DNA of 13,625 bases from a virus (lineage: Duplodnaviria > Heunggongvirae > Uroviricota > Caudoviricetes). Location: IMG/VR virus record IMGVR_UViG_2681813234_000008, positions 1 to 13,625 of that record; one strand, written 5' to 3'. Shown one piece after another: positions 1-13,625 of the stretch. Below the pieces are notes generated by a model, which worked only from the letters and a program-made list of their open reading frames with translations, did not search any database and had not been told where the DNA came from. Position numbers and translations under genes: made by a program. Every line of letters begins with the position of its first letter. Position 1 is the stretch's first letter.

Positions 1-74
1 TCCGTAACGCCTCTGCCACGCGCGTAACGTGACAGGGATTAAAGGTAAACCAATTGATTTTGCAAGTTTTTATT

Positions 75-1361
75 TTACCCCGCTTTCTTATGGGGCATGC
101 ATGGGACACTTTCAGATAGTCTTCTGTTAAGAAGTTCTATCTGTTCGTGATTGTTGTCTTTCATCCATGCTCCGTAAACATTGAATACCATTTGTGCGTT
201 TGTGTGGCCCATCTGGCTTGCGATAAAACTAGGATTAGCTCCTGCGGCAAGTGACCAGCATGCATAGGTATGCCTGGATTGATACGATTTTCTGTGTCTC
301 AGACCTGCGCGTTTTAAGATACTTGTCCATGACTCCCTGATGGAGTCAACCTTATAGTGCGGTCCGGAAAACTGCCGCTGTTTTATTACCTGAGGACTAA
401 AAACAAAAGTGCATTTATGCACAGTACTTCTCCCATATTCCCTCTGCTTTACCTCTACAGAATGCTGTTTTCCAAGCATGGTCATTTCCGCTTGGCTTTT
501 AAGAGCATCAATAGCTGGTTGAACTAGATGAATCGTTCTTCCGGTACCAGCATCAGTTTTTGGTGGAGTGAATTCGCCTAGTTTTGTATAATTCCGGCGG
601 ATGGTTATAGTCCTCGCTTTAAGGTCTATATCTTCCCAGGCCAGTGATACCAGCTCCCCGTGACGAATACCTGTGTATACAGCGATAATCCACAGGTTTT
701 TTGTTTGTTGATGACGGCAAGCCTCAATAAAACGAATAAATTCGTCACGGGTGAGGGGATCTGGTTCTATCCTGGACTTTTTTAATGGTGTCAGACCGTT
801 AAATGGATTTCCTGATGTATAACCATTATCTGTTGCAAATTGAAACATTCCAGCTATGGTTGTCATATAGTAGTTTACTGTGACCACTGAGCGTCCTTTT
901 ATGGAAGAAATTTTTCCGTTAGAAAGCTTTTGATAACCGGTCAACAGATCTCTCCTTACGAAAAGCAAATCCTCTTTTGTTACAGATGAAACCAGTCTTT
1001 TTTCACCTAACATTGGCAACATGTTTTTAATTACTGACTGGTAACGGTTAAGTGCATTTGCACAAATCTCTATTTTCTTCAGTTCAAGCCATCTTTCCGA
1101 AAGTGCTTTAATGGTTATCTCTCTTTTCCCCAGACCAAAGTGTTTCAGGTTAGGGGACTCAGGGAACTGTGCTGCATAGTCGAAACTCCCCATTCTTATT
1201 GCAAAACAAACGGAAGTGCGGAGGTCACCTGCGATTTTCCGGTTTTTGGCGGTGTCAGGAACACCGAGGTTTTCTCTGACACGTTTGCCGTTATAGTGAA
1301 ACCATATGCGGAGTGATCCGCCATGATTTTCAACGCCTGTTGGGTATGATGTATTACTCAT
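75..1361 (-). CDS. int: Tyrosine recombinase (phage integrase)
   Basis: 428-aa ORF with C-terminal catalytic signature (RHTYA, GHTNAQMVFNVYGAW with putative catalytic Tyr) and an N-terminal arm-type region (GSLRIWFHYNGKRVRE). Strong SD (GGAGG) 5 nt upstream of the ATG at 1361. Confidence 0.85.
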   Translation of the reverse strand: MSNTSYPTGVENHGGSLRIWFHYNGKRVRENLGVPDTAKNRKIAGDLRTSVCFAIRMGSFDYAAQFPESPNLKHFGLGKREITIKALSERWLELKKIEICANALNRYQSVIKNMLPMLGEKRLVSSVTKEDLLFVRRDLLTGYQKLSNGKISSIKGRSVVTVNYYMTTIAGMFQFATDNGYTSGNPFNGLTPLKKSRIEPDPLTRDEFIRFIEACRHQQTKNLWIIAVYTGIRHGELVSLAWEDIDLKARTITIRRNYTKLGEFTPPKTDAGTGRTIHLVQPAIDALKSQAEMTMLGKQHSVEVKQREYGRSTVHKCTFVFSPQVIKQRQFSGPHYKVDSIRESWTSILKRAGLRHRKSYQSRHTYACWSLAAGANPSFIASQMGHTNAQMVFNVYGAWMKDNNHEQIELLNRRLSESVPCMPHKKAG

Positions 1362-1394
1362 TAAACCTCCCAGACGTCCAGGAGCATTAACAGG

Positions 1395-1649
1395 TTAACC
1401 GGAACTTGCATTTTTAACACCTGGTTGTTTCTGATTTTCGATCCAGCGCATAATTTCCTCTATGTTGTATACGCATTCACTGTTGCTCTTCGGAATTCCA
1501 TCGACAGCGTAATGTCGATATTCTTTCCCCTGTAGCCATGATTTTTTCCTGGCTCGCTCAATGGTGCCTGGTTTTAGCCCTGTCGAAGCAATGAGGGTGC
1601 TTTCTGTACACCATTTACTTGGTGTTATTTGATAGATGATTGTCTGCAT
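1395..1649 (-). CDS. xis: Excisionase-like small DNA-binding protein
   Basis: 84-aa basic ORF 33 nt upstream of int on the same strand, with SD GAGGT. Position and size fit Xis/AlpA-type directionality factors; family assignment by eye only. Confidence 0.55.
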   Translation of the reverse strand: MQTIIYQITPSKWCTESTLIASTGLKPGTIERARKKSWLQGKEYRHYAVDGIPKSNSECVYNIEEIMRWIENQKQPGVKNASSG

Positions 1650-1656
1650 GTCAACC

Positions 1657-1803
1657 TCATAAAACTTTCAGCCCACGGCAGTGGCACCACACCTCAAACA
1701 TTCGTTTCACAACTTCACGGCAGTAGAAACCGTCAACATCTCGCGTCAGGTCATAACGATTGCCGTAACGCTGGCGTACCCATAGCTCAAACGCTTTATT
1801 CAT
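1657..1803 (-). CDS. Small hypothetical protein (48 aa), not in the ORF track
   Basis: Manual translation gives MNKAFELWVRQRYGNRYDLTRDVDGFYCREVVKRMFEVWCHCRGLKVL. ATG sits 3 nt after the stop of the upstream gene with an AAGGAAG SD about 6 nt upstream; it fills the gap between the 80-aa gene and xis. Confidence 0.3.
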   Translation of the reverse strand: MNKAFELWVRQRYGNRYDLTRDVDGFYCREVVKRMFEVWCHCRGLKVL

Positions 1804-1806
1804 TCG

Positions 1807-2049
1807 CTACTTCCTTTTCATGGCTCGTAATTTTTTCAGATGAGCTTCCTGCTCTGTTTCTGCCAGAATTTGTCGGTATTCCTGGTGATCGATCCGTTCA
1901 AACGATTCATTAAAATCGTTCATTTTTACCGATTGTGTTCGCCCATCCATTCTTCTGTACAACACGGTGTTATTTATGCAGCGAATAATTTTTACTGGGT
2001 AACCGGCACTGTCGGTATACAGTTGTCCCTGATTAATCAAAGCAAACAT
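1807..2049 (-). CDS. Hypothetical protein (80 aa)
   Basis: Track ORF 1807..2172, trimmed to the internal ATG at 2049, which has an AGGAG SD about 6 nt upstream. No recognisable domain. Confidence 0.5.
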   Translation of the reverse strand: MFALINQGQLYTDSAGYPVKIIRCINNTVLYRRMDGRTQSVKMNDFNESFERIDHQEYRQILAETEQEAHLKKLRAMKRK

Positions 2050-2080
2050 TTTTTCTCCTGCTCTCTGAATAGTGAGAACT

Positions 2081-2452
2081 TCAGAGCCGTATGTTTGTAG
2101 CGGGTTCAATACTGATAATTTCTGCTGAGATAAGCATCCCGGCAAGCCAGAGTTCTCTGGACAGGTCTTCATCCTGACATATCAGTTCGCCAATATTAAT
2201 GGTGGCCATGATATCTGTTTCCCCTGTGCGCTCATCCTCGACTTCTTCATAAGGCAGCGTTGCGTACAGGCTTTCAATAGCGCAACTGATAACATCCAGT
2301 CCGGTCAGATTGCCGCCGACAGTAACTTCGAATGTTTCGCGGTATTCCCATAGTCCGAAAGTTAATCGAACGGTTTGTTTTGCCATGCGTCCGCATGACG
2401 TCAGATTCGGGTCATAGTTCATTATTTGCGGTTGGGTATTATGGGTGTTCAT
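2081..2452 (-). CDS. Hypothetical acidic protein (123 aa)
   Basis: Track ORF with an AAGGGA SD-like sequence upstream, same strand as the neighbouring operon. No recognisable domain. Confidence 0.5.
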   Translation of the reverse strand: MNTHNTQPQIMNYDPNLTSCGRMAKQTVRLTFGLWEYRETFEVTVGGNLTGLDVISCAIESLYATLPYEEVEDERTGETDIMATINIGELICQDEDLSRELWLAGMLISAEIISIEPATNIRL

Positions 2453-2492
2453 CTGCTTTTCCCTTAGCCCGGCGGCCTGCCGGGCATATAAG

Positions 2493-3320
2493 TTATTTAA
2501 CCTGGATAAATGGCGTATTGGCGCCGCTGGTCATGTATTGCGGCAGTGTGCCGTTCCATTTATTGATGGCTTCCAGTTCCATAACTCCAGGGTTCTGGCG
2601 CAGAGCTTCACCGCGTAAACGAATAGCATCGGCTTCGGCCTGGGCTTTTGTGCGAATCGCATCAGCCTGTCCGGCAGCTTCCGCGCGCAGCATGTTGGCT
2701 TCCGCTTCGCGCTGTTTTACTTCCTGCTCGCGTTGCAGGGTTTTCTGGTTTGCCGTGACTTTGGCATTAATGCTGTCGATAACGGTTGGTGGGTACTCCG
2801 GTTTACCTACATATGAGAGGCTCACTACCTGAATACCGATGGGTGTCATTTCTGCCTGAATGTCTTTAAGAGCAGCATCCAGCAGTTCAGACTTGCCGCC
2901 GTCGATAAATTTGTCGGTGGTCATTTTGCTGGCCAGTCGGTTGAGTGCGTCGGCGATCTTCTGGCGCAGGTCGGTGTCGGTAATGTCATCCACGCCTTTG
3001 CGGTAAGTCTGAAACACCGTGGTAACTTTGGATGGATCAACTTTGTAGGCCACGCCAATGTGATAGCCGATGGTTGTACCGTCACTCATCTGGAAACTGA
3101 ACGGTTCATCGTAGGTCTTCATTTGTTTGAAGGTGGGGAAGATATAAACTTCAGTATTCCAGCCAGTCCAGTAGCGACCAACACCGACCACCTCACCGAC
3201 GCCTTTGTCGTCGCCCAGTTTATTTACCTTGATGCCAACATTACCTGGTTCAACGCGATCGCAACCGACAAGGCCAATAGTCGGCAGAACAATGGCTAAA
3301 GCAAAAATAATTTTTTTCAT
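2493..3320 (-). CDS. SPFH/Band-7 (HflK/HflC-like) lipoprotein, predicted inner-membrane anchored
   Basis: N-terminal signal peptide with lipobox LVGC followed by Asp at +2 (inner-membrane retention rule). Core resembles the HflK/HflC pattern (VEPGNVGIKVNKLG ... IGIQVVSLSYVGKPEYPPTV), followed by an Ala/Gln/Glu-rich coiled-coil tail. SD AAGGA; ATGA overlap with the upstream small gene. Confidence 0.7.
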   Translation of the reverse strand: MKKIIFALAIVLPTIGLVGCDRVEPGNVGIKVNKLGDDKGVGEVVGVGRYWTGWNTEVYIFPTFKQMKTYDEPFSFQMSDGTTIGYHIGVAYKVDPSKVTTVFQTYRKGVDDITDTDLRQKIADALNRLASKMTTDKFIDGGKSELLDAALKDIQAEMTPIGIQVVSLSYVGKPEYPPTVIDSINAKVTANQKTLQREQEVKQREAEANMLRAEAAGQADAIRTKAQAEADAIRLRGEALRQNPGVMELEAINKWNGTLPQYMTSGANTPFIQVK

Positions 3321-3505
3321 CTTTTATCCTTAGTGAAAGAAAGACCCTTGTAAATGGCATAAATGCAGGGCGGGGTCAGAAACGCCAGTGCAAAGCCAGA
3401 AATAACTGCTATCGTATCCTTCATGGATATAAGGAACGGAACGAGTAATCCGTAAATGCATGCGATAATTGCCAGTAAAATTACTATTGTGAAATACAGT
3501 CTCAT
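3317..3505 (-). CDS. Small two-helix membrane protein (62 aa), coupled to the SPFH gene
   Basis: Two hydrophobic stretches (YFTIVILLAIIACIYGLLVPFLI and IAVISGFALAFLTPPCIYAIY). Its stop overlaps the SPFH start as ATGA. Weak SD. Confidence 0.55.
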   Translation of the reverse strand: MRLYFTIVILLAIIACIYGLLVPFLISMKDTIAVISGFALAFLTPPCIYAIYKGLSFTKDKR

Positions 3506-3528
3506 TGGTCTGTGGTATCCCGATATTT

Positions 3529-3636
3529 TTAACCGACTGACAGCGCAATAAAGAGAATAATGATTTCAGTTAGTGTCAGTACTGTGGCAAGGATTAAAAT
3601 CAGTTTTACTCTGTTTAATTCACGGTTGCTTTTCAT
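3529..3636 (-). CDS. Putative 35-aa single-helix membrane peptide, not in the ORF track
   Basis: Manual translation gives MKSNRELNRVKLILILATVLTLTEIIILFIALSVG: charged N-terminus then one hydrophobic helix. It lies 46 nt after the 193-aa gene stop and 24 nt before the 62-aa membrane gene. No clear SD. Confidence 0.25.
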   Translation of the reverse strand: MKSNRELNRVKLILILATVLTLTEIIILFIALSVG

Positions 3637-3681
3637 ATAAACGGTTAGTAAAAGATGGAAGAATTATATTCTTCTTAATAT

Positions 3682-4263
3682 TTAATGTGTCACTGGCGCT
3701 TCTGACATACCATGAGTATTCAGGTCGTTAATCATTTCATCCAGAAGGAGTTCAAGCCCTTCGCGCCCCATAGCAGAGAGAATGAAACCATTATCAGGAT
3801 CTGCGATGAGCATTTTTTGATAGAGAAACAGAACTCGCCCGATGCCTTCAGTTTCGCCATATTTTTCAATAAATCCCCATTCGACATGGTTTTGCAGGGC
3901 AATGCGAAGTGGTCCTGGGTATATACTTATGCAACCATGTTTCCCCTTGTAAATAACTGCGCGATCTGTCGTCCCGTTATCGTTAGGGATATCAATAGTG
4001 CCGTTCTTGTCTTCCTCTTCACTGATAAACTTCATCACATACAGCCAGCGCCACTGAGCAACCTTCAGATCGACTGAAAATCTTCCCAGCAATCCGGCAT
4101 CATCAGCTTCGGCAAGACATTGCATGATTCTTAAACCGTGCCAGTATGGATTATCGAATTCGCCATCATTAAGCCGCTGTACGGCCTCAATATAATCAAT
4201 GGTTTTATTACCAATTTTTATGCCATGTGGCGTTACTTCTGGTCGGAACTCTGAATGATTCAT
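3682..4263 (-). CDS. Hypothetical protein (193 aa), distal gene of a coupled pair
   Basis: Track ORF 3682..4338, trimmed to the ATG at 4263 (MNHSEFRPEV...), which overlaps the upstream gene stop as ATGA. Very AT-rich; no recognisable domain. Confidence 0.6.
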   Translation of the reverse strand: MNHSEFRPEVTPHGIKIGNKTIDYIEAVQRLNDGEFDNPYWHGLRIMQCLAEADDAGLLGRFSVDLKVAQWRWLYVMKFISEEEDKNGTIDIPNDNGTTDRAVIYKGKHGCISIYPGPLRIALQNHVEWGFIEKYGETEGIGRVLFLYQKMLIADPDNGFILSAMGREGLELLLDEMINDLNTHGMSEAPVTH

Positions 4264-4448
4264 AATGTTTGCTCCTTTGCTGGTGGAATAATCGTGTAGC
4301 CAGCTCTTTTTGCCATCCACAGAAATGTATCCATGCAACCAACGAATTCATTATCCAACAGATGTTTTGAGTAAATTACTTCACCATTTTCAATAGTTAG
4401 CAACACTCTTACTTTTTTATGTGTTATGTTTTGTTGTTTTTCTTTCAT
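4260..4448 (-). CDS. Hypothetical small protein (62 aa), proximal gene of a coupled pair
   Basis: Track ORF with GGGAGA SD about 8 nt upstream of the ATG; AT-rich codon usage. Stop overlaps the start of the 193-aa gene. Confidence 0.5.
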   Translation of the reverse strand: MKEKQQNITHKKVRVLLTIENGEVIYSKHLLDNEFVGCMDTFLWMAKRAGYTIIPPAKEQTL

Positions 4449-4644
4449 TTATTTATCTCCCATATGCTTTGCGCAAATACAGGTTGGCTATATGAAGATA
4501 AGAATCTCCATGTTGTGCAATGAGGCAGGCAGTTTTATACGATGCCTTATGTTTCAGGAAAGTCATAACATAATCTCCTGCGAATAAAGGTTGCAACAAT
4601 CCCCGGCGATAAAACCGTAATAAACATTCAGGGAATATTTATTG

Positions 4645-5010
4645 TTATTGCGCTAATTCTTTTTCGGCAGCAGATTTTGCATATTCACATGCAAAATTCA
4701 GAATTTCGCTGCCAAGTGTTTTTGTTTCGTGATTACTGGACATATGTAATACCTGTGTTGCATGCAATAAATGATAAACATTTACCGCAAATGAATCAGG
4801 CTCCAGACAAATGCCTTCATAATCATCTTGTTGTGAGGTTGTTTCTGTCATTGCTCCTGAAGTGCATGCGAGCCTGTTTTTGACAATTCTCTTTCCTCTA
4901 ATCACTATATCGGCAACATCTATTGCCTTTACAACCTCCGGGAGAAGGTCCGGGTTTGTATAATCAAAGTCATTAACATGGAGAACAGTTATGTTTTCGA
5001 ACTTTTTCAT
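4645..5010 (-). CDS. Hypothetical protein (121 aa)
   Basis: Track ORF with GAGGAA SD upstream of the ATG at 5010. It lies downstream of an HTH gene on the repressor strand. No recognisable domain. Confidence 0.55.
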   Translation of the reverse strand: MKKFENITVLHVNDFDYTNPDLLPEVVKAIDVADIVIRGKRIVKNRLACTSGAMTETTSQQDDYEGICLEPDSFAVNVYHLLHATQVLHMSSNHETKTLGSEILNFACEYAKSAAEKELAQ

Positions 5011-5138
5011 GGCTTCCTCAGCTGACTTATATGTTCTGCTATATAGCGAGTCTCAGAAGTGTTTTCATATTGAGACTGTTTCCTCAATGATTGATAAAAA
5101 TGTTCGCATGTACCTTGAGGGGCGAAGCGGCGATTATG

Positions 5139-5657
5139 TCACCATTGGTATTGGTTCTTCCGTAGAAGAGCTTCGCGAGATAAGGAGCAAACTTGTTGAG
5201 ATGCGTCATGGTGTTGCTGCTCCTCACTTTTTGGTTGCTCCGGAGGAGTAACCTCACCAGTTAACAGCCACATCGGATCGCAGCCAAGAATATTTGCCAG
5301 TGGGATAAGCATACTGATAGTTGGTTCATACTTTCCGCTCTCCCACTGGATGATAATTTCTTCATCGAGATCGAGCAGCCTGGCGAGTTCGGCGGTTGTT
5401 AAGCCGCAAGCTTCGCGTTGAGTGCGAAGGCGGGAACTAATAGTCACCATAGCAAGGCGACGGCAAGATTTAGTGCGCTCTTGCCTTCTTTGTGAAAAAT
5501 CTTCTTGTGCAAGAGAAGATGCCAGTTCAGCTGAAATTAGAAGTAATGAATATGAAACATCTCGCTCTTTCTCGGTACCTGAAGACAACAAGCAGGCTGC
5601 GTTAAGGGATGCAGAAAGCTTGTTGATGTCATCTATAGCGTCAATAAAATCGATCAT
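5139..5657 (-). CDS. XRE-family helix-turn-helix protein (172 aa) with extra N-terminal region
   Basis: Central HTH_3-like segment (GLTTAELARLLDLDEEIIIQWESGKYEPTISMLIPLANILGCDPMWLLTGE). GGAG lies upstream of the ATG at 5657; the alternative start at M70 (5450) lacks an SD. Confidence 0.6.
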   Translation of the reverse strand: MIDFIDAIDDINKLSASLNAACLLSSGTEKERDVSYSLLLISAELASSLAQEDFSQRRQERTKSCRRLAMVTISSRLRTQREACGLTTAELARLLDLDEEIIIQWESGKYEPTISMLIPLANILGCDPMWLLTGEVTPPEQPKSEEQQHHDASQQVCSLSREALLRKNQYQW

Positions 5658-5697
5658 TTCTCAAAGCTCCAATAATGCGCTGTGAGGCAATGATTCA

Positions 5698-5728
5698 TCA
5701 ATTATAATTGATAGTCAAGTATGATTTA
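5698..5728. promoter_or_regulatory. Operator-like 14-bp perfect palindrome TCAATTATAATTGA (5698-5711) plus adjacent half-site TCAAGTA (5715-5721)
   Basis: Palindrome read directly from the sequence. It sits between the repressor stop and the start of the 172-aa HTH gene and matches the site family in the repressor/cro intergenic region. Confidence 0.45.
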
Positions 5729-6211
5729 GTCTTTTTGATTGAGTTTTTGCGTGATTAGCAAGATGTTTTTTGAGTGTTCTTCCAGAAGATTTTTTGCAAA
5801 ATCCAACACCTTTACCCTCTCTTTTGTGGGTAAATTCGCAAATATTTCAAATAAATAGCTTGTATCCTCAATGATTGTTGGATCTATAGATTCAATAATA
5901 CCTCGTATCAGTTTGTTGCTCATTGAATCAAAAAGAGTTTCTCCATTCTCCCGGGTAAGTGTGTACTTAGGTTTTTCTGTGTTTCCATTTAAAAGCCACT
6001 GTACGTCGCACTGTAAGAGTTCTGATAATTTCAATAGCTTATCGCTAGTTATGCTTGTCTTTCCTTTCTCCCACAAAGATACAGCAGCCATTGATACCCC
6101 CATTGCTTGTGCCAGCTTTAATTGACTTAAACCAAGTTCTTTTCTGCGTGACAGAATCCTGTGCCCCATTGAGAGTGGGGAAGACTGACATGACTTTAGT
6201 TTTGTATCCAT
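5726..6211 (-). CDS. Prophage repressor, XRE-family HTH, no recognisable S24 peptidase domain (CI analog)
   Basis: N-terminal HTH (LGLSQLKLAQAMGVSMAAVSLWEKGKTSITSDKLLKLSELLQCDVQWLLNG). Transcribed divergently from the Cro-like gene. Track ORF trimmed to the ATG at 6211, which has a GAGGG SD. The C-terminal 90 aa show no Ser/Lys autopeptidase motif. Confidence 0.7.
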   Translation of the reverse strand: MDTKLKSCQSSPLSMGHRILSRRKELGLSQLKLAQAMGVSMAAVSLWEKGKTSITSDKLLKLSELLQCDVQWLLNGNTEKPKYTLTRENGETLFDSMSNKLIRGIIESIDPTIIEDTSYLFEIFANLPTKERVKVLDFAKNLLEEHSKNILLITQKLNQKD

Positions 6212-6291
6212 ATTGCCCTCAAGTATACTTGATAGTAAGATTGTGTTGTAATTCCTGTTGCTAAGCTTAATCAATTAATGTTGAGGTCTCA
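6212..6291. promoter_or_regulatory. Divergent immunity promoter/operator region with two 14-bp sites, TCAAGTATACTTGA (6219-6232) and TCAATTAATGTTGA (6271-6284)
   Basis: The first site is a perfect palindrome and the second is a 12/14 match to the 5698 palindrome. Each abuts the SD of the gene on its side. -10-like hexamers (TATACT, TAAGAT) are present, but promoters are not mapped. Confidence 0.5.
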
Positions 6292-6531
6292 ATGATAAAG
6301 ATTAGTGCAATTAAGTTTTATGGTTCGCAAAGGGCGATTGCTCAATCACTGGGGATTAGCGAGCAAGCTGTTTCTCAATGGCCAGAACTCATTCCTAAAG
6401 GTGCAGCTCTGGAGCTTGAGAAACTCACTGATGGCGCTTTGAAGTGCGATCTGAACCTGTACAAGAACCGCTCGCGCAAAAACAAGCGTGAATTGCACCC
6501 AAGCTTAGCGCACACGGGGGAGGAGAAGTGA
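6292..6531 (+). CDS. Cro/YdaS-like small DNA-binding regulator
   Basis: 79-aa ORF with the YdaS/Cro-type motif GSQRAIAQSLGISEQAVSQW ... PKGAALELEKLTDGALKCD. Divergent from the repressor; GAGG SD. Confidence 0.7.
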   Translation: MIKISAIKFYGSQRAIAQSLGISEQAVSQWPELIPKGAALELEKLTDGALKCDLNLYKNRSRKNKRELHPSLAHTGEEK

Positions 6532-6851
6532 TGGGCGTGTACGTTGATCGTAGAGAAATACTTCTTGATTGCGTGCAGATAGACATGCCCTCGGCTTATA
6601 GCTCAGCAGATGCTGAGTGGATTAAGCAGCAGTTACTTAGCCTGACACTCACGGCACGACAAAAAGCCATCCAGCGTTATGGCGTTGTGTATCAGGAGGC
6701 ATTTGAGGCCGAACCCATTTCGTACCGTAAGGAGAACCGGGCAAGGCATGAAGCAAACACAAGGCTTCGCCTGTTTGTGAGAAATCAGGGCAGAGCTTTA
6801 CAGGGGTATGCCGCCGAACCTCCCCTGGCTGGAACGCAATCGCGATCCTGA
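6531..6851 (+). CDS. Hypothetical protein (106 aa) in the CII position, Arg-rich C-terminus
   Basis: ATG overlaps the cro stop (TGATG) with a GGAGGAG SD upstream. No recognisable HTH, so a CII-like role is a positional guess only. Confidence 0.5.
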   Translation: MGVYVDRREILLDCVQIDMPSAYSSADAEWIKQQLLSLTLTARQKAIQRYGVVYQEAFEAEPISYRKENRARHEANTRLRLFVRNQGRALQGYAAEPPLAGTQSRS

Positions 6852-6935
6852 TTGTTTCGGGTTTGAAGGTACCCGAACAGAAGCAGGCTTAAAGGTGCCT
6901 GTTCAGGTTGGCAACCAACTGACCCAATTCCTCAT

Positions 6936-6960
6936 GCGTACTAGGTAAGTAGTACGTTTT
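6936..6960 (+). terminator. Weak intrinsic-terminator-like hairpin
   Basis: Stem CGTACTA / TAGTACG with loop GGTAAG, followed by TTTT. AT-rich stem, so stability is modest. Lies about 85 nt after the 106-aa gene. Confidence 0.3.
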
Positions 6961-6963
6961 TAT

Positions 6964-7017
6964 GGGGAAGAGGGAAAGGGGGGAGGGGGGGGATTGGGTG
7001 CAGGGGTAGGAATAGGG
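6964..7017. repeat. G-rich polypurine tract with runs G4, G3, G6, G8, G3, G4, G3
   Basis: Read directly: GGGGAAGAGGGAAAGGGGGGAGGGGGGGGATTGGGTGCAGGGGTAGGAATAGGG. The first 30 nt are pure purine. It sits inside a 428-bp intergenic region. Confidence 0.9.
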
Positions 7018-7279
7018 ACTTTTCCAACAGGAGAGAGCCATTGGTTAAGTAGATCACTGTCTTAAGGGCGCAATTTAAAAAAACGCCTGTATCAGCAAGA
7101 TAGTACAAGGCGCTCAGGCGCTGAGAAACGAAAAAGGGTTCTTCCTGGAAGAGTGTTTTTCAGGGGAACTGAATCTGAAGGGAGGCTGGCAGCCTTTGGG
7201 GAGGCCACCAGCCATGTGAGGGGGAATCCATGAAAACCACATCACAAAATTATTATCTCATCAGCACTGGAGCAAAACA

Positions 7280-8932
7280 ATGGAGCTGACGATCACGCCG
7301 AATTTTGCACAGGAACGAGCGTTAAACATGTTGCGTCGTGACTGGAAGGCAAATGACACCTTCATGGTGTATTCGCCAACTGGTAGCGGTAAAACCGGTT
7401 TGGCCGCTTTCATCGTTGCAGGGTTTGTCAGCCGTGGTATGCGCGTTCTGTTTTGTGCACCGTACACTATCCTGATTGGTCAGACGGCTAATCGCTTCGT
7501 GGAGTACGGGTTACCGGAGGATGAAATCGGTTATATCTGGGCGGATCACCCGAACTACGATCCGGACCGGAAAATTCAGATTGCCAGCGCCGACACGCTT
7601 ATTCGTCGTGTTTTTCCTGAAAATATTGATCTGCTGATTATCGACGAAGCACACCTGCGTAAAAAACGCATCCTGAAGGATATCGAACGTCTGCGCGGCA
7701 AAGGCGTAAAGGTGATTGGCCTGTCGGGTACTCCGTTTTCCCCGTTCCTGGGCAAATACTATGACCGACTAATTAAACCGACCACCATCGGCGAGTTAAT
7801 CCAGCGTGGCGATCTGAGTAAATACGAATTTTATGCGCCAACAAAGCCGGATCTGAAAGGCGTAAAAACCAAGTCTTCACTTGAGTACGGCAACGATTAT
7901 AACGAAGCTCAACTGGCTGAAATCATGTGCGGCTCTACGCTGGTGGGCGACATCGTACAGAACTGGCTGGAGAATGGCCGGGATCTGCCGACAATCGCGT
8001 TCTGCGTCAACGTAGCCCATGCTAATTTTCTGACAATCCAGTTTAACCAGGCTGGCATTAACGCTGAGGTCATGACCGCCAACACGCCAGTGGATGAGCG
8101 TCAGACCATCATTCACCGCTTTGAAACTGGTGCAACGAAAATCATCGTTAGTGTGGGCGTTCTGGTGGCTGGCTTCGATAGTGACGTTCGTTGCATCATC
8201 TACGCCAGGCCAACAAAAAGTGAAATTCGCTGGCTGCAGGCGATTGGGCGCGGCCTGCGCACAGCGCCGGGTAAAGAATCTTGTCTCATATTCGATCACA
8301 GTGGCACCGTACACCGCCTCGGTTACCCGGATTCTATCGAGTATGACGATCTCCCCGGTAAGTCTGATGGCATGGAGGAAAGTGCGCGCCGTGCAGCTGA
8401 GGAGCGGGCCGAAAAACTCCCCCATGAATGTTCTCAATGCCACTACATGAAACCCGCTGGTGTCTACGTCTGCCCGAAATGCGGGCATAAGCCGTTGGGT
8501 GGTGAGGATGTCGATACCGATACCGGGCGCAAACTTAAAAAGCTGGGTAAAAATCAGCATCTATCGACAAAGGCAGAGAAACAGGCTTGGTGGAGCCAGA
8601 TCAAATTTTATCAGCGCCAGCGCGTATCGCAGGGGAAAAAGCCCGTTAGTGATGGCTGGTGCGCTCACATTTTCCGGGAGAAGTTCGGCGAATGGCCGGA
8701 TAACCTGAGTGATTTCCCGATGGAAATTACCCCGGAGGTAAGCAACTACATCAGATACAAACTCATCAGGTTTGCGAAAGGGCAAAAACGCCCCCCTCAA
8801 CCACAGACAGAATCTCATCATGCAGGCGCATTGCCGCTAGGTTGTGCCGCAATTTACGAGCTCCCTGAGAACTGCCCGACTAAGGCAATTATCAACGCCA
8901 AACAGCAACTTCAGAAAAATGTAGTGGTGTGA
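7280..8932 (+). CDS. Superfamily-2 DEAD/DEAH-type helicase with C-terminal zinc ribbon (replication module)
   Basis: Walker A SPTGSGKTG, motif II LIIDEAH, motif III LSGTP, motif VI QAIGRGLR, and a C-terminal CSQCHYMKPAGVYVCPKCGH. GGAG SD upstream of the ATG. Confidence 0.85.
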   Translation: MELTITPNFAQERALNMLRRDWKANDTFMVYSPTGSGKTGLAAFIVAGFVSRGMRVLFCAPYTILIGQTANRFVEYGLPEDEIGYIWADHPNYDPDRKIQIASADTLIRRVFPENIDLLIIDEAHLRKKRILKDIERLRGKGVKVIGLSGTPFSPFLGKYYDRLIKPTTIGELIQRGDLSKYEFYAPTKPDLKGVKTKSSLEYGNDYNEAQLAEIMCGSTLVGDIVQNWLENGRDLPTIAFCVNVAHANFLTIQFNQAGINAEVMTANTPVDERQTIIHRFETGATKIIVSVGVLVAGFDSDVRCIIYARPTKSEIRWLQAIGRGLRTAPGKESCLIFDHSGTVHRLGYPDSIEYDDLPGKSDGMEESARRAAEERAEKLPHECSQCHYMKPAGVYVCPKCGHKPLGGEDVDTDTGRKLKKLGKNQHLSTKAEKQAWWSQIKFYQRQRVSQGKKPVSDGWCAHIFREKFGEWPDNLSDFPMEITPEVSNYIRYKLIRFAKGQKRPPQPQTESHHAGALPLGCAAIYELPENCPTKAIINAKQQLQKNVVV

Positions 8933-8937
8933 GTTTT

Positions 8938-9906
8938 ATGAAAACAGTAGATGCTGCGAAAGGCCGCTGGCCTGAAATTTTAGAGCATTTTGGTCTGCCA
9001 CCGATAACTGGAAAAAATCACTATAAAGGAGAATGCCCTGTATGCGGTGCGCGCGGAAAGTTGCGAATTGATGACCGTGACGGGCGTGGAACGTGGATTT
9101 GTACTTGCGGCAGCGGTGACGGTATGAAGCTTGTCACCCTGACACAGGGAAAACCATTCAATGAGGTTTGTAGGGAAATAGACCACCTGATCGGTAATGA
9201 TTTTCAGCGTGTAAAAATCCCGGTCAGCAGCAGCGCTACCAGCCTGCGTACAAAGGTTCTGAATAAGTTCGCGAAGCTGCAGCCGTTACGTGGCACTTCT
9301 GGTGCTGCGTATCTCAATGCGCGCGGCATTTTCAGTCTGCCGCTTGAAGCGATCCGTTTCAACGATAAGCAGCGCCATGCCGGGAGGGTGTATCAGTCGC
9401 TTTATTCCCTCGCCACCGATGATAAAGGGGAACTGTGCTATCTGCATCAGACATTACTCGATGGCCCCAAAAAAGCAGATATCGGTGCCAGTGCAAAGCG
9501 CCAAAAATCCCTGCAGGAAGATAACTATCTTGATCACGCCCGTTCAGTAGCGATCCGGATGTTCCCGGTAGCCAGCACACTTGGCATCGCCGAAGGCATC
9601 GAAACGGCTCTGTCAGCGCACCAGATTTACAACGTAAACACCTGGGCAACTATGACGGCTAACTTCATGAAGAAATTTCGTGTTCCGGCTGGCGTTAAGC
9701 ACCTGATTATTTTTGCTGACCGTGACGAAAACAGTGCCACCGGATTGGCAGCGGCCTATGAATGCGCTCATGCCAATCTGCTGGCAAAGAATGACCTGCA
9801 GCGCGTGAGCGTGTACTGGCCCGATCACGATGATTTTAACAACATGCTCATGAACGGCGATCAGGTTCGTGAGCTGGTTTTCTACAAGAAAAAGGCGACT
9901 GCGTAA
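8938..9906 (+). CDS. DNA primase, N-terminal zinc ribbon plus TOPRIM-like domain
   Basis: CPVCGARGKLRIDDRDGRGTWICTCG zinc-binding motif and an acidic TOPRIM-like motif LIIFADRDENSATG. Coupled to the helicase stop; the track start is a GTG at 8929, and the ATG at 8938 is preferred. Confidence 0.65.
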   Translation: MKTVDAAKGRWPEILEHFGLPPITGKNHYKGECPVCGARGKLRIDDRDGRGTWICTCGSGDGMKLVTLTQGKPFNEVCREIDHLIGNDFQRVKIPVSSSATSLRTKVLNKFAKLQPLRGTSGAAYLNARGIFSLPLEAIRFNDKQRHAGRVYQSLYSLATDDKGELCYLHQTLLDGPKKADIGASAKRQKSLQEDNYLDHARSVAIRMFPVASTLGIAEGIETALSAHQIYNVNTWATMTANFMKKFRVPAGVKHLIIFADRDENSATGLAAAYECAHANLLAKNDLQRVSVYWPDHDDFNNMLMNGDQVRELVFYKKKATA

Positions 9907-10766
9907 TGCGTACAGATAACAACGAACATAAAGCACTATTCACCATCCCGACGGCAGCGCATAGCTCCGCCCTGGCAAACATCAAGCCTCTGCCTGAGCA
10001 ACAGAGAATCACCGGGCATAAACAGACCGATGCCTATCTGTGGGTACTGGAGGTCATCCGCCTGAACGAACCGGCACATCTGGACGCTGCAGAAGCAGCG
10101 CTGGAGAAAATTAAAATCTCTCCAAAAGAGGCCGAGGAGCGGTATTCCCGTTATCTGCTGGCGAATGGCTGTGATCCTTTCCAGGCAGCTTTCGGTACTA
10201 TCGGTATGGATAATCCAGCGAGAGCCATTGAAAATGCGCGTAAGAACATCAAGAAAGCTGCTGATGTTCGCGCTACGTTCGGCAGCTATGAGGCTGCGAT
10301 GGAGGACGTAGAGGCCGAGCGAGTGATCAGGTCTTCCCAAAAATTTACTGATGATTACCTGTGGGGCTGGACCGCAGACGAAAAGAGAGACGGAAGCATT
10401 AACGGCAGTCGTATGAATGAAATTGATGATCAGCGTCGCGCATATGTTGATGGCTATCGTGACGTTCTGCCAGAGCCTCATACACTGTCAGATGTTGTTC
10501 GTGAATTTGTTTACTGGGACTGGCTTTACAACGTTCGCCGTACTGCTGGCCAGGAACTCGGCTACGACTTTGGTTATTCCGAACACCATGAGTCTGTATA
10601 CGACCGTGAGCGATACCTGGAAAAATTACTGGCAACCATCAAACCGGTGACACGCGCTGAAGCTGTGGAGGTGTGCCGCTGGTTTCTGGCAAGCGGAAAG
10701 GACGAATACATGGAAGACAACGGGGCGGCAGTCATTCTTAATCTGGTTGGAGAGTGCGAACAATGA
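9906..10766 (+). CDS. Hypothetical protein (286 aa)
   Basis: ATG overlaps the primase stop (TAATG). Codon usage matches the replication module. No recognisable domain. Confidence 0.6.
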   Translation: MRTDNNEHKALFTIPTAAHSSALANIKPLPEQQRITGHKQTDAYLWVLEVIRLNEPAHLDAAEAALEKIKISPKEAEERYSRYLLANGCDPFQAAFGTIGMDNPARAIENARKNIKKAADVRATFGSYEAAMEDVEAERVIRSSQKFTDDYLWGWTADEKRDGSINGSRMNEIDDQRRAYVDGYRDVLPEPHTLSDVVREFVYWDWLYNVRRTAGQELGYDFGYSEHHESVYDRERYLEKLLATIKPVTRAEAVEVCRWFLASGKDEYMEDNGAAVILNLVGECEQ

Positions 10767-10906
10767 GACTTGAGGCATCGCTAAAACATTTCAACTTTCA
10801 GGGGAGCGCACAGGACTCTTCCAATGCAGCAGCCACAGCCGCGCAGATACAGCAACAAACGAACTGACAGCAGTAAGATGGAGCGTTTCTTTTGAACAAC
10901 CAGACA

Positions 10907-11149
10907 ATGACTTTTACCCCTGAACAATTACGCAAACAGGCGCAGGAAATGCTGCGACAGGCGGAACAACTGGAAAAATCAGGCGTAACAAAAGATGCCA
11001 TTCGTCGGGATATGGTACCCGCGCTCAGAGAACTGATGCAGGCAAAACACCGCGCACAAAAAGCGGTGGATGAGCTGGTGGATTGTGTGGCAGAGCTGGA
11101 AACAAAAGTTGGAAAATTTGAAAAATTGGTGCAGGGGGTACTGCGTTGA
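10907..11149 (+). CDS. Hypothetical small coiled-coil protein (80 aa)
   Basis: Track ORF starts at a TTG; trimmed to the first ATG. Charged, helix-prone sequence (EQLRKQAQEMLRQAEQLEK). Its stop overlaps the rusA start. Confidence 0.45.
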   Translation: MTFTPEQLRKQAQEMLRQAEQLEKSGVTKDAIRRDMVPALRELMQAKHRAQKAVDELVDCVAELETKVGKFEKLVQGVLR

Positions 11150-11520
11150 TGCGCTTAGAGTGTGTTTTACCTTACCCACCGACGGTGAACACCTACTGGC
11201 GTCGTCGTGGCAGCACATATTTTGTATCAAAAGCAGGGGAGCGTTATCGCCGGGATGTGGCGCTTATTGTTCGCCAGCAGCGACTGAAATTAAACCTGTC
11301 CGGAAGGCTGGCAATAAAAATTATTGCAGAGCCGCCGGATAAGCGCCGTCGTGACCTGGACAATATTCTGAAAGCACCACTGGATGCGCTGACGCATGCC
11401 GGACTACTTATAGACGACGAGCAGTTTGATGAAATCAATATTGTGCGCGGACTGCCTGTTCCTGGTGGGCGGTTGGGCGTGAAGATTTACGAAATTACAG
11501 GTGATAACGATGGTGCGTGA
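11149..11520 (+). CDS. rusA: Holliday-junction resolvase RusA family
   Basis: Matches the RusA pattern ([40 protein letters not shown]), including the acidic catalytic residues. Typical Nin-region position. Confidence 0.8.
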
Positions 11521-11896
11521 TATTCAGCAGGTTATGGAGCGGTGGGGATCATGGGCTGCGAACAATCACGAAGATGTGTCATGGGCGTCAATCGCTGCTG
11601 GTTTTAAAGGATTAATCCCGCCGAAAGTGAAATCACGCCCTCAGTGTTCTGATGATGATGCAATGATAATTTGTGGCTGTATGGCCCGGTTGAACAAGAA
11701 AAATCAGGATTTGCACGATTTGTTGGTGGATTATTACGTAGGTGGAATGACTTTTATGGGGTTGGCACGAAAGCATGGGTGTTCGGATACCTGTATTGGC
11801 AAGCGCCTGCAGAAAGCGGAAGGGGTTATTGATGGCATGTTGATGATGCTTGATATCCGACTAGAGATGGACAGATACGTAGAACGAATCATGTAG
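11510..11896 (+). CDS. Late-gene antiterminator Q (phage 82/DLP12 QuuD-like family)
   Basis: Motifs [21 protein letters not shown] and Cys cluster [16 protein letters not shown]. Immediately followed by a promoter-plus-terminator unit. Start placed at the ATG at 11510, which has an AGGTGA SD. Confidence 0.7.
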
Positions 11897-11900
11897 GAGC

Positions 11901-11930
11901 TTGACCAGACACATTGTCCGGGGCTATATT
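11901..11930 (+). promoter_or_regulatory. Candidate late promoter pR' (-35 TTGACC, 18-bp spacer, -10 TATATT)
   Basis: Near-consensus sigma-70 hexamers 5 nt after the Q stop, followed by short hairpins and an intrinsic terminator about 75 nt downstream. Confidence 0.45.
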
Positions 11931-11990
11931 CCTCACGCGCCAGCAAAATCTGGCGTCGGGATTGGCGTCCCGGATGAAAAAGGCGACAAC

Positions 11991-12012
11991 AGACGCGCCA
12001 GCGTCTTTTTTG
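11991..12012 (+). terminator. Intrinsic terminator (tR'-like)
   Basis: Stem AGACGC / GCGTCT with loop GCCA, followed by TTTTTT. Confidence 0.5.
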
Positions 12013-12169
12013 TTGTCGTTTGCACTGTCACATCTCAATGGTGGGCTGTGTGGGGGCGGAGCGATCCGCGCCGGTTCCTTTTTCCCGGTTACGCCAACCC
12101 TGCACAGTTCACCACCATACTGATTGGCGTCAGCAGTGGTGATGATTCACATAGAAAAAGGATCATCCT

Positions 12170-12658
12170 ATGGCTATTCAAATCTCAGTTGAAACTCTTT
12201 CCCCGATCACCCATAACCAAATCCCTGTCATTACTACCGAGCTTTTGGCACAACTTTATGGCACCGAAACTAATAACATCAAAGTGAACTATACACGCAA
12301 TGCCGAGCGTTTTGTTTGTGGGAAACACTACTTCAAATTGGAAGGGGCTGAGTTGCGGGAATTTAAGAACAAGGTTACTCAAAGTAACTTAGTTGCACCG
12401 CGTACAAAGCACCTCATCCTCTGGACAGAACGCGGAGCAGCCCGTCACGCCAAAATGCTGGAAACCGATCAGGCGTGGGAAGTGTTCGAAAAACTGGAAG
12501 ACTGTTATTTCAGCCAAAAACAACCACCAGCAGCACAAAACACCCCAACCCAAAATGATGGATGCGCATTACTGATCCACTTCGATAAACACGGTCAGGT
12601 CGACTTCACGGAAAAACTACCCGCCGATGCGATGGTATGCACTCTGGAACGGTTTTAA
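12170..12658 (+). CDS. ORF6N-domain protein (antirepressor-like N-terminal domain family)
   Basis: Pattern LAQLYGTETNNIKVNYTRNAERFVCGKHYFKLEGAELREFKN ... LILWTERGAARHAKMLETDQAW is typical of ORF6N/KilA-N-like phage proteins. AGGA SD 7 nt upstream. Confidence 0.65.
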   Translation: MAIQISVETLSPITHNQIPVITTELLAQLYGTETNNIKVNYTRNAERFVCGKHYFKLEGAELREFKNKVTQSNLVAPRTKHLILWTERGAARHAKMLETDQAWEVFEKLEDCYFSQKQPPAAQNTPTQNDGCALLIHFDKHGQVDFTEKLPADAMVCTLERF

Positions 12659-12734
12659 AAATTTTCCCCGAACGCTTTACGATCGTAAAAAGTTGAATAT
12701 CCTGTTAAGAGTGGTTACTACGCCAAACAGCTTA

Positions 12735-12760
12735 AACCCGCCACTGAGCGGGTTTTTTTA
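12735..12760 (+). terminator. Intrinsic terminator
   Basis: AACCCGC / GCGGGTT stem with short loop, followed by TTTTTTT; lies 77 nt after the ORF6N gene stop. Confidence 0.6.
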
Positions 12761-12881
12761 TGCCTGAAAAACGGTACAGGACGTTAAACGCGCTGGTGGT
12801 TGCGAATACTGGTCTTTCGGCTTGTATTTTTGTAAATCGATATATACTTATCTTGTGACCAGTAATGTCAGGGCAATTGAT

Positions 12882-13625
12882 ATGAATGAAGCTTGTTCTG
12901 TTGTTTTTGTTCATTCCCCGTTTGTTGTGCTCTTTGAAGGAAAAGAGCTCTCTCTGGAAAGTGGTAGTGCACTTCTTGTCAGGGGGGGAGCTGGATCGTT
13001 ATTGCCCTTTTCGGAATGTTTTCGGCGAATAAGTCTCAGTGAATCGACAATTATCCGTTACCTGTTGTGTGGAGACGAAAAACAGGATGTAGTTTTAGTC
13101 CGGCAAATACCACGATATCTTTGCGTGAGTTTTCCCAAGGCAGAATTGATGGGCATCCTGATTGATTATCTTTGTGAGGAAAAGATTCATACGGACAATT
13201 TAGCGGAAATGCTTTCCTTTTCGTGTCTGGCGTTTTTCTCATCAGAGAAAATGTTTTCGTCGTTTCTGACCGCGTGTATTGGCAATATTAGTGACAGGCT
13301 TAGTGCATTGTTTCGTACGGACATTGCAGCAAACTGGACTCTGAGAGATGTGTCTTCGCGGTTATGTATCAGTGAAAGTTTGTTAAAAAAAAGACTGAAA
13401 GAAGAAGGCACCTGTTTCAGTGAGTTGTTGCTTACAGAGAGAATGAGAATGGCAGCAATGCTGTTGAATCAATCTCGTTGCGCCATCAACAGAATCGCTG
13501 CTCAGTGTGGTTATAATTTTACATCTTATTTTATCAGCGTATTCAGGAGTTATTTTGGTGTTACACCGGCAGGTTACAGGATGGCTGCATTCAATGAGAT
13601 GAGTTTAAGTGTTACTCAAGAATAA
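12882..13625 (+). CDS. AraC/XylS-family transcriptional regulator, AppY/YdeO/GadX-like
   Basis: C-terminal AraC HTH (ESLLKKRLKEEGTCFSELLLTERMRMAAMLL ... CGYNFTSYFISVFRSYFGVTPAGY). N-terminus MNEACSVVFV resembles AppY as recalled from memory. Track start is a TTG at 12822; the ATG at 12882 is preferred. AT-rich gene. Confidence 0.8.
   Translation: MNEACSVVFVHSPFVVLFEGKELSLESGSALLVRGGAGSLLPFSECFRRISLSESTIIRYLLCGDEKQDVVLVRQIPRYLCVSFPKAELMGILIDYLCEEKIHTDNLAEMLSFSCLAFFSSEKMFSSFLTACIGNISDRLSALFRTDIAANWTLRDVSSRLCISESLLKKRLKEEGTCFSELLLTERMRMAAMLLNQSRCAINRIAAQCGYNFTSYFISVFRSYFGVTPAGYRMAAFNEMSLSVTQE

Follow-up and report, generated by a model that had tools for sequence, protein, structure and literature searches.

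We analyzed a 13,625-nucleotide stretch of a virus of the Caudoviricetes (IMG/VR record IMGVR_UViG_2681813234_000008, positions 1 to 13,625; hereafter the window), which represents the integrase-to-Q half of a lambdoid prophage and whose right end coincides with the stop codon of a gene for an AraC-type regulator. Between this gene and the antiterminator gene Q lies a gene for an ORF6N-domain protein, and a sequence-only reading had taken the two as cargo in the position where Stx phages carry stx, just downstream of Q and the terminator tR', with the ORF6N gene read through from the promoter pR' when Q is active. Both genes are present (ORF6N at 12170-12658, PF10543; AraC at 12882-13625, PF12833 and PF00165); what had been overlooked are RNA genes in the gap between Q and ORF6N and a late promoter in the gap between ORF6N and AraC. 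We find that the region probably consists of two independent units split by this late promoter, the first an IsrK/C4-type antirepressor cassette and the second PR' with the AraC gene behind it. The sequence features, the homologies, the RNA complementarity with its covariation and the purifying selection on the AraC gene from which we argue are read directly from the DNA. The landmarks of the division are as follows.

11501 to 11896, plus strand: Q antiterminator of the Q21/933W family (start at 11513 in the annotation of the NCBI Prokaryotic Genome Annotation Pipeline, PGAP; PF06530, E 5.6e-52)
12170 to 12658, plus strand: ORF6N-domain antirepressor gene, homolog of AnrP/Ant, 162 amino acids (PF10543, PHROG)
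12676 to 12759, plus strand: PR' of the 933W/Sp5 type with the first late terminator (81% identity over 84 nucleotides to the post-Q region of P27/Sp5)
12676 to 12681, plus strand: predicted -35 element of PR', TTTACG
12698 to 12703, plus strand: predicted -10 element of PR', TATCCT
About 12710, plus strand: putative start of PR', placed by homology to the mapped Sp5 start
12734 to 12759, plus strand: first late terminator, with its stem at 12734-12755 and a U7 run to 12759 (terminator scan; hairpin fold of -14.9 kcal/mol)
12882 to 13625, plus strand: AraC/XylS-family regulator, 247 amino acids, WP_001345622.1, ATG start, TAA stop

The PR' start and the tR' end of the Sakai prophage Sp5 have been mapped by differential RNA sequencing (dRNA-seq) and Term-seq (Sy et al. 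2020, PMC7547250). The two versions of the Sakai record differ in their coordinates by 142 bp; once this shift had been corrected, the mapped Sp5 start came to lie at A1346 of locus L015 and the end of the U-run at 1603, each exactly at the feature expected. The window shares with the Stx-phage PR'-tR' leader (PMC7547250) a homologous -35, -10, start region and first hairpin ahead of the cargo slot, with the homology ending past the first hairpin, ∼50 nucleotides from the start; we found no match in the window to the 74-nucleotide Hfq-binding small RNA (sRNA) StxS at the 3' end of that leader (Sp5, L015 1530-1603), and the second terminator of the 258-nucleotide leader is also absent. In Sp5 the -35 element of PR' overlaps the last codons of Q, and in the window a remnant of the Q 3' end (TTTACGATCGTAA) sits after ORF6N, so that the cassette lies between Q and its promoter and replaces the tail of Q. 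The 19-residue C-terminal tail of the Sp5/P27 Q protein is indeed absent from the window Q, which is otherwise 80% identical to P27 Q and 83% identical to ECs_1084 of Sakai Sp4, and distantly matches the Q21 structures 6P18 and 6JNX (E 7e-7). By this homology, the window appears to hold a 933W/Sp5-type PR' together with its cognate Q. Because ORF6N lies upstream of PR', it cannot be transcribed from it, and the first gene downstream of PR' is the AraC gene. The comparison with the position of stx thus holds for the AraC gene, directly downstream of the PR' homolog, and fails for ORF6N, which lies between Q and PR' in an IsrK/C4-controlled module with its own promoter.

The Sp5 PR' leader (L015 1370-1395) has the same strong hairpin and U7 run, ∼25-50 nucleotides from the start. 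In the window, the hairpin at 12734-12759 marks where the sequence common to late operons with unrelated antiterminators begins, and a leaky terminator, a part of Q loading or a recombination joint are candidates for its role. Matches to the Rfam Trp, Phe and Leu leaders at 12688-12761 were below threshold and were set aside as reflecting the terminator hairpin only.

The other placement of the late promoter makes pR'/tR' the promoter and terminator found right after Q (11901-12006), with ORF6N and AraC both as cargo reached by Q read-through. A promoter-like site 4 nucleotides past the Q stop codon, followed by an intrinsic terminator, speaks for this, as does the order Q-isrK found also in Gifsy-1. 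However, the segment is an IsrK gene (Rfam, 79 bits), and the tR' as placed by the sequence-only reading (11991-12006) is the IsrK terminator. The same unit is found elsewhere upstream of Q or far from any Q, and beside three unrelated antiterminator contexts, and it therefore cannot carry a Q-specific loading site. With a homolog of the mapped 933W-type PR' at 12676-12759, in company with an 80%-identical Q, we regard this placement as improbable.

The gap between Q and ORF6N that had seemed to hold tR' is 273 nucleotides long, and Rfam reports three matches in it above threshold, all of them full-length. The elements of this first unit are listed below.

11901 to 11930, plus strand: cassette promoter, equivalent of PisrK, TTGACC, 18-nucleotide spacer, TATATT (promoter scan, 10/12 matches)
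11924 to 11976: c4-a1b1 motif (Rfam RF03163, 52.2 bits, cut-off 46.7)
11937 to 12011, plus strand: IsrK-like sRNA (Rfam RF01394, 79.4 bits, cut-off 50, full length)
11960 to 11968: b1 site in IsrK
11976 to 11983: a1 site in IsrK, in a single-stranded linker
11991 to 12006: stem of the IsrK intrinsic terminator (terminator scan, fold)
12034 to 12119, plus strand: C4-type antisense RNA (Rfam RF01695, 74 bits, cut-off 45, model positions 1-87 of 87)
12038 to 12142, plus strand: small open reading frame (ORF) of 34 amino acids at the position of Gifsy-1 orf45
12076 to 12084: a' site in C4, in a hairpin loop, CCUUUUUC with flanking U
12091 to 12097: b' site in C4, in a single-stranded bulge
12122 to 12130, plus strand: b2 target site in the ORF6N leader
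12154 to 12162, plus strand: a2 target site in the ORF6N leader, including the Shine-Dalgarno sequence AAGGA (12158-12162)

The cassette promoter begins 4 nucleotides past the stop codon of Q (at 11896), and its -35 and -10 elements are conserved in nine cassettes of differing genomic context. Stx phages such as P27 have the cassette, promoter included and with ∼84% DNA identity, ahead of their Ant gene in the nin region, upstream of Q; the Stx phages CP-1639 and JLK-2012 have it, with its promoter, at the same place. Diverged copies are those of CP-1639, JLK-2012, PhiR5_2, a Hafnia phage and an Actinobacillus phage, that of the Hafnia phage adjoining the integrase gene. Since the same unit recurs upstream of Q or beside an integrase, the cassette is a self-contained mobile module outside the late operon.

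The complementarity within the cassette is that expected of C4-type control. The C4 RNA has a minimum free energy of -43.5 kcal/mol (z = -4.4) and folds with a' and b' unpaired. The a' site forms 9 Watson-Crick base pairs with a2, which covers the Shine-Dalgarno sequence, and b' forms 7 with b2; moreover, a' is complementary to a1 as well as to a2, and b' to b1 as well as to b2. Among the nine cassettes there are six a sequences and four b sequences, and every time all three copies change in concert. Because MAFFT misaligns these hypervariable segments, column-wise counting of pairs was dropped for the a sites in favor of a matrix of matching versus mismatched complementarity, in which matching sites form 6-9 Watson-Crick base pairs and mismatched sites 5 or fewer. 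The sole exception is the a'/a1 pair of CP-1639, with 4 base pairs, or more if one G-U pair is allowed. The a variants (at least six) and b variants (at least four) look mutually non-complementary, like the difference in specificity between P1 and P7, and cassettes of several types can coexist within one Stx phage genome, at two places per record. A more far-reaching and less likely possibility is that, through their a and b variants, the antirepressor cassettes of lambdoid phages form a set of RNA immunity specificities that are orthogonal to one another.

In the model that we propose, unit 1 (11901-12658) would be a cassette of the P1-immI/Gifsy-1-isrK type inserted between Q and PR'. Transcription from the cassette promoter would yield the short IsrK RNA, and read-through of the IsrK terminator a longer RNA carrying C4 and the ORF6N message. 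Pairing of a' and b' of C4 with a2 and b2 would mask the ORF6N Shine-Dalgarno sequence and leave the antirepressor untranslated, until the a1 and b1 decoy sites of IsrK titrate C4 and allow translation; the antirepressor would then inactivate the prophage repressor. In unit 2, PR' (start at ∼12710) would be followed by the terminator at 12734-12759 and the AraC gene at 12882-13625, with Q letting the PR' polymerase read through and transcribe AraC; in the lysogen, leak-through or a weak promoter belonging to the gene may provide some transcription as well. The activity of the promoters, the dependence on Q, the target of the antirepressor and the AraC regulon are the parts of this scheme that we infer.

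The first unit has counterparts in two known systems. In Gifsy-1, PisrK was shown to drive anrP, with polymerase reading past the IsrK terminator; the long RNA remains untranslated until the short IsrK acts in trans, and AnrP raises early-operon (antQ-operon) transcription and induces the prophage (Hershko-Shalev et al. 2016, PMC4825925). The Gifsy-1 region antQ-isrK-orf45/STnc1160-anrP-isrJ has the same order as the window, that is Q, IsrK with its own promoter and terminator, a C4-like RNA and an ORF6N antirepressor, and in both a short terminated RNA stands just ahead of late cargo and lysis genes. They differ in the family of Q (933W/Q21-type in the window, 82-type in Gifsy-1), in a-site specificity (GAAAAAGG in the window, AUCACCG in Gifsy-1), in the downstream short RNA (a 933W-type PR' leader in the window, IsrJ in Gifsy-1), and in that the window antirepressor, unlike AnrP, is without the 24 C-terminal residues. 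Whereas Gifsy-1 orf45 encodes 45 amino acids and overlaps anrP by 4 nucleotides, the 34-residue ORF of the window ends 27 nucleotides ahead of the ORF6N ATG and does not overlap the ORF6N start, so that a coupling of this kind is missing. At this position the ORF ranges from 3 to 48 amino acids across the nine cassettes and its frame is not kept; given this variation and the lack of overlap here, the orf45 coupling model is not conserved, and the small ORF at 12038-12142 is probably not a conserved coding feature. Gifsy-1 IsrJ (L003 3860-3934; Rfam, 100 bits) starts 33 nucleotides past the anrP stop, in the slot that the PR' leader and first terminator take in the window; like StxS in Stx phages, it may represent a short, terminated product of late-promoter transcription in Gifsy-1.

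The second counterpart is the c4-icd-ant (immI) operon of P1 and P7, in which, according to the passage of PMC8198154 that cites Citron and Schuster 1990, C4 blocks expression of the antirepressor. As in the window, C4 lies on the same transcript as its target, with a1/b1 upstream and a2/b2 at the ribosome-binding region, the output is an antirepressor, and specificity classes are set by the a and b sequences. In contrast to immI, the window encodes an Ant of the ORF6N type rather than Ant1/2 of P1, has no conserved icd-like ORF and no C1 operator identified at the promoter, and has an intrinsic terminator that makes the a1/b1 segment a separate sRNA, IsrK.

The ORF6N protein itself matches PF10543 (E 1.2e-21, 77 bits, cut-off 27.8) and the PHROG anti-repressor families (phrog_2379, E 2.6e-78, covering 1-163 of 187), and it is 59% identical to Gifsy-1 AnrP (STM2616). 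By homology, then, the gene downstream of C4 would encode the antirepressor that control of the C4/immI type calls for. Over 162 residues the protein is 97% identical to an E. coli allele of 186 amino acids, from which it differs by an exact in-frame 72-bp deletion that takes away the final 24 codons and leaves the native stop in place, and PGAP flags the gene as a pseudogene. Because of the loss of these codons, the antirepressor route of induction is probably weakened or dead in this copy. The deletion allele is present in 13 genomes, all of them carriers of AraC behind this Q, and among the matches listed the other full-coverage ones have the intact allele.

We also considered that the ORF6N protein might be a DNA-binding transcription factor of the KilA-N/ORF6N type or a host-directed factor, with the short form as a functional variant. 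ORF6N is a predicted DNA-binding domain family in which the antirepressor label of PHROGs and GenBank is mostly assigned by similarity; the deletion is exactly in frame, with the native stop retained, and its allele is fixed in 13 genomes from several countries. These genomes, however, are near-identical over the segment, which fits a single hitch-hiked event, and the deleted residues hold a motif (GWIV...L..L) that is conserved between E. coli and Salmonella, being shared with Gifsy-1 AnrP, and themselves belong to the phrog_2379 family profile. Given also that AnrP raises early-operon transcription and induces Gifsy-1 when expressed, we consider a role of this kind unlikely, and favor a cassette whose antirepressor has probably been damaged.

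In the second unit, the AraC gene occupies a moron, or late-cargo, slot, and ORF6N is outside it, being upstream of PR'. The features at the left edge of the cargo are given here.

12825 to 12881, plus strand: left edge of the AraC cargo, AT-rich; homology to the methylase- and psrA-carrying loci (L002, Sp4) stops at ∼12825
12822 to 12827 and 12843 to 12848, plus strand: weak AraC promoter candidate, TTGTAT, 15-nucleotide spacer, TATACT (read by eye)
Within 12825 to 12881, plus strand: AGGG ribosome-binding site ahead of the AraC ATG

In all five loci that were inspected, the AraC gene lies between the antiterminator and the holin gene, and the sequence is shared from the terminator hairpin through AraC, with another terminator just past the stop. 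The antiterminators in front are of three types (Q21/933W-like, DUF1133 and YdfT-like), and AraC is intact behind each. The holin gene is next in three of the five loci; in ETEC1730 a tRNA-Gly gene precedes it, and in GB089 an IS66 element inserted after AraC does. The slot that runs from the PR' terminator to the holin holds AraC here, psrA in Sp4 and stx2 in Sp5, the latter two with tRNAs as well, and in loci L002, L021 and L022 a small hypothetical ORF, a DNA methylase gene and tRNAs. An empty site, with the terminator joined straight to the holin, was sought and none was found; the slot always had cargo. The GC content of the AraC gene is ∼0.42, compared with ∼0.50 upstream.

Sakai Sp4 provides the parallel for this arrangement, with an 83%-identical Q, an inserted gene, a homologous PR'/terminator and then an AraC-like regulator; its full order is Q, a CAAX protease gene, PR'/terminator, ECs_1086, psrA (ECs_1087), tRNAs and the lysis region. 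The other prophage-borne relatives are placed differently: the PatE gene is at a prophage end and appY at the far right end of DLP12, neither of them after Q.

The AraC protein has the double helix-turn-helix (HTH) of its family (PF12833, E 1.2e-13, 51.6 bits, cut-off 33.6; PF00165, E 3.2e-13, 49.9 bits, cut-off 26.6), and ATG 12882 is the start annotated in the matching genomes, the mechanical ORF having begun at TTG 12822. The homology search that the sequence-only reading had proposed gave PatE (ECs_0287) as the closest characterized full-length relative, at 39% identity, followed by YdeO (36.5%), GadW (36%), PsrA (35%) and AppY (30%); in BLASTP over residues 1-232 the E-values were 3e-50 for PatE, 5e-48 for GadW, 4e-46 for YdeO and 2e-36 for AppY, and the match to PsrA had E 4e-39. 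Of the Psr proteins, the comparison covered PsrA, with its sequence taken from the Sakai genome. Identity in the N-terminal domain to members of the subfamily is 21-31%. The earlier description as AppY/YdeO/GadX-like was therefore right as to the subfamily (YdeO, GadW, PatE, PsrA and AppY) and less so as to its members, AppY being the most distant full-length relative and GadX, like EnvY, aligning over the C-terminal, DNA-binding half only. The protein shares with K-12 AppY (DLP12), YdeO and GadW a two-domain AraC/XylS architecture with an N-terminal CSV(I/V)F motif and a C-terminal double HTH, and with PsrA and PatE of enterohemorrhagic E. coli O157:H7 it belongs to one subfamily, at 35-39% full-length identity, as a separate lineage. 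It matches phrog_1450 over its full length (E 1.8e-55), and among solved structures it is closest to the GadX DNA-binding domain (3MKL, E 2e-22), Rns, CsvR and ToxT. The NCBIfam models for YdeO (full-length, 146.9 bits, under the cut-off of 348) and GadX (98.1 bits, under the cut-off of 500) and the 30% identity to AppY do not support orthology to any of these three. A word-indexed protein search returned 15 clusters, none carrying a functional name, and a literature search for WP_001345622 found nothing. On its sequence, the gene belongs with the known YdeO/PatE/Psr-like regulators carried by prophages, as a new and uncharacterized member. PatE, PsrA/B, AppY and YdeO have published roles at gadE/hdeA, and indirect repression of the locus of enterocyte effacement is reported for PsrA/B and PatE; by homology, the AraC protein would activate AT-rich, H-NS-silenced promoters of the acid-resistance type (gadE/hdeA). 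As annotated, psrA of Sp4 (ECs_1087; L013 13651-14391) encodes 195 amino acids, and its frame is open for a further 153 nucleotides upstream; because the upstream frame holds the N-terminal motif of the subfamily, MVVVCSVI, the annotated start is probably too far downstream.

Of 5426 complete E. coli genomes, 65 carry the AraC gene, in every case on the chromosome, and a DNA search of the same genomes found it in none beyond these carriers. There are two main lineages, one at identities of at least 97% and one at ∼90%. Among the carriers listed, many are from cattle, farms or pigs, the first lineage coming from cattle, farm environments, beef and mutton and the second from porcine enterotoxigenic E. 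coli, in which the annotation lengthens the coding sequence at its N terminus by 68 codons, through the PR' leader region. In comparison with the 90% lineage, the ratio of nonsynonymous to synonymous substitution rates (dN/dS) is 0.29; in comparison with the 97% lineage, it is 0.31. At about 0.3, this ratio indicates that the gene is maintained by selection and, the gene being also of full length, that it is not the pseudogene that had been allowed for. As for its expression, the promoter scan called no canonical promoter for the AraC gene itself, and expression would most plausibly be Q-dependent from PR'. Since PR' is constitutive in Stx phages (PMC7547250) and the first hairpin of Sp5 evidently lets some transcripts pass, some expression in the lysogen is possible.

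The rarity of the gene could nevertheless be taken to mean that it is silent or degenerating and of use to neither host nor phage, the more so as no sequenced or deposited phage genome encodes an AraC protein more than 41% identical, the literature is silent on it and a canonical promoter is lacking. This we judge to be improbable as well: the protein is full length relative to PatE, YdeO and GadW, dN/dS is 0.29-0.31 between lineages 90% and 97% identical, the gene is intact behind three types of antiterminator, and host regulons are known for characterized relatives (PsrA, PsrB, PatE and AppY) that occupy the same slot or belong to the same kind of prophage. A functional regulator read from PR' remains the reading that we prefer.

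The rest of the window contains the early-left, immunity and replication regions.

75 to 1361, minus strand: integrase
2493 to 3320, minus strand: SPFH/Band-7 protein, in the early-left region beside DUF5406 and DUF4222 proteins
5139 to 5657, minus strand: HTH repressor candidate (HTH_3)
5726 to 6274, minus strand: HTH repressor candidate (HTH_3)
6292 to 6531, plus strand: P22-Cro-like gene, opposite both HTH_3 repressor candidates
7280 to 8932: DEAD-box helicase, replication module
8929 to 9906: Toprim primase, replication module
9906 to 10766: phrog_6204 protein, replication module
11146 to 11520: RusA

The SPFH/Band-7 gene may be a further accessory gene. Minus-strand ORFs at 12185-12382, 12732-12914, 13051-13242 and 13187-13411 had no PHROG family match and were rejected as spurious. 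A tRNA scan of the window found none, and the tRNA block of Stx phages is therefore absent from it. The window is a mosaic: 12 complete E. coli genomes match the segment 11500-13625 at 99.6-100% identity, the replication module is ∼87% identical to prophages of O121:H19 Shiga toxin-producing E. coli, and the 13 genomes that share the Q-AraC segment carry another replication module (with a DnaB-type helicase in L001). The whole window was found in no complete E. coli genome, and a query with 6000-13625 found none with at least 80% coverage. In strain MEI7BO1-21, where the Q-AraC segment is 100% identical, the holin genes begin 180 bp past the AraC stop.

Neither of the two HTH_3 repressor candidates (5139-5657, 5726-6274) contains an S24 autocleavage/peptidase domain. 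This suggests a repressor that is not RecA-cleavable and an induction that depends on an antirepressor; with candidates that are HTH-only, antirepressors may matter for the induction of this prophage. Combined with the loss of the antirepressor C terminus, which is restricted to the AraC-carrying lineage, the same repressor candidates underlie a further reading, in which the prophage has been locked in and repurposed, with AraC, behind a constitutive PR' and just one, possibly leaky, hairpin, as a host regulator of the lysogen. We hold this to be doubtful, and equally so its extension, that the regulator would serve acid resistance or colonization in livestock-associated E. coli and be boosted by Q on induction.

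Several points weigh against the division into an RNA-gated cassette and a Q-dependent AraC gene. The -10 element of PR', TATCCT, matches at 4/6 positions, compared with TATCAT in Sp5, and the simple promoter scan of the window did not call PR' at 12676-12703. A 258-nucleotide PR' RNA is reported in Sp5 (PMC7547250), so that some transcripts evidently run past the same first hairpin there, and the tightness of termination at this hairpin is thus uncertain. Because the window ends at the AraC stop, the downstream holin is deduced from genomes that have no more than the Q-AraC segment in common with it. The authors of the Gifsy-1 study attribute activation to translation of orf45 and not to direct pairing of C4 with the Shine-Dalgarno sequence (PMC4825925), which argues against the pairing proposed here; the orf45-like ORF is not conserved in the window. 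The conserved N-terminal 116 residues of the ORF6N protein are intact, and the truncated protein might still be active; a PDB sequence search found no solved relative for it. Finally, the AraC regulon is predicted from relatives of 35-39% identity.

No part of the locus is a new kind of system; the type of cassette is known and probably represented here by a disabled allele. The correction to the earlier description ties the AraC gene, at the stx-equivalent position, to the late operon, and not ORF6N. Present in about 1% of complete E. coli genomes, this gene is a candidate for a regulator, carried by a prophage, of acid resistance or virulence, as are PsrA/B, PatE and AppY. Among the lambdoid prophages of E. 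coli and the Stx phages, the IsrK/C4-type RNA-gated antirepressor is for its part common, in several pairing specificities, and bears on how Stx and other prophages may be induced without RecA-mediated cleavage of the repressor.

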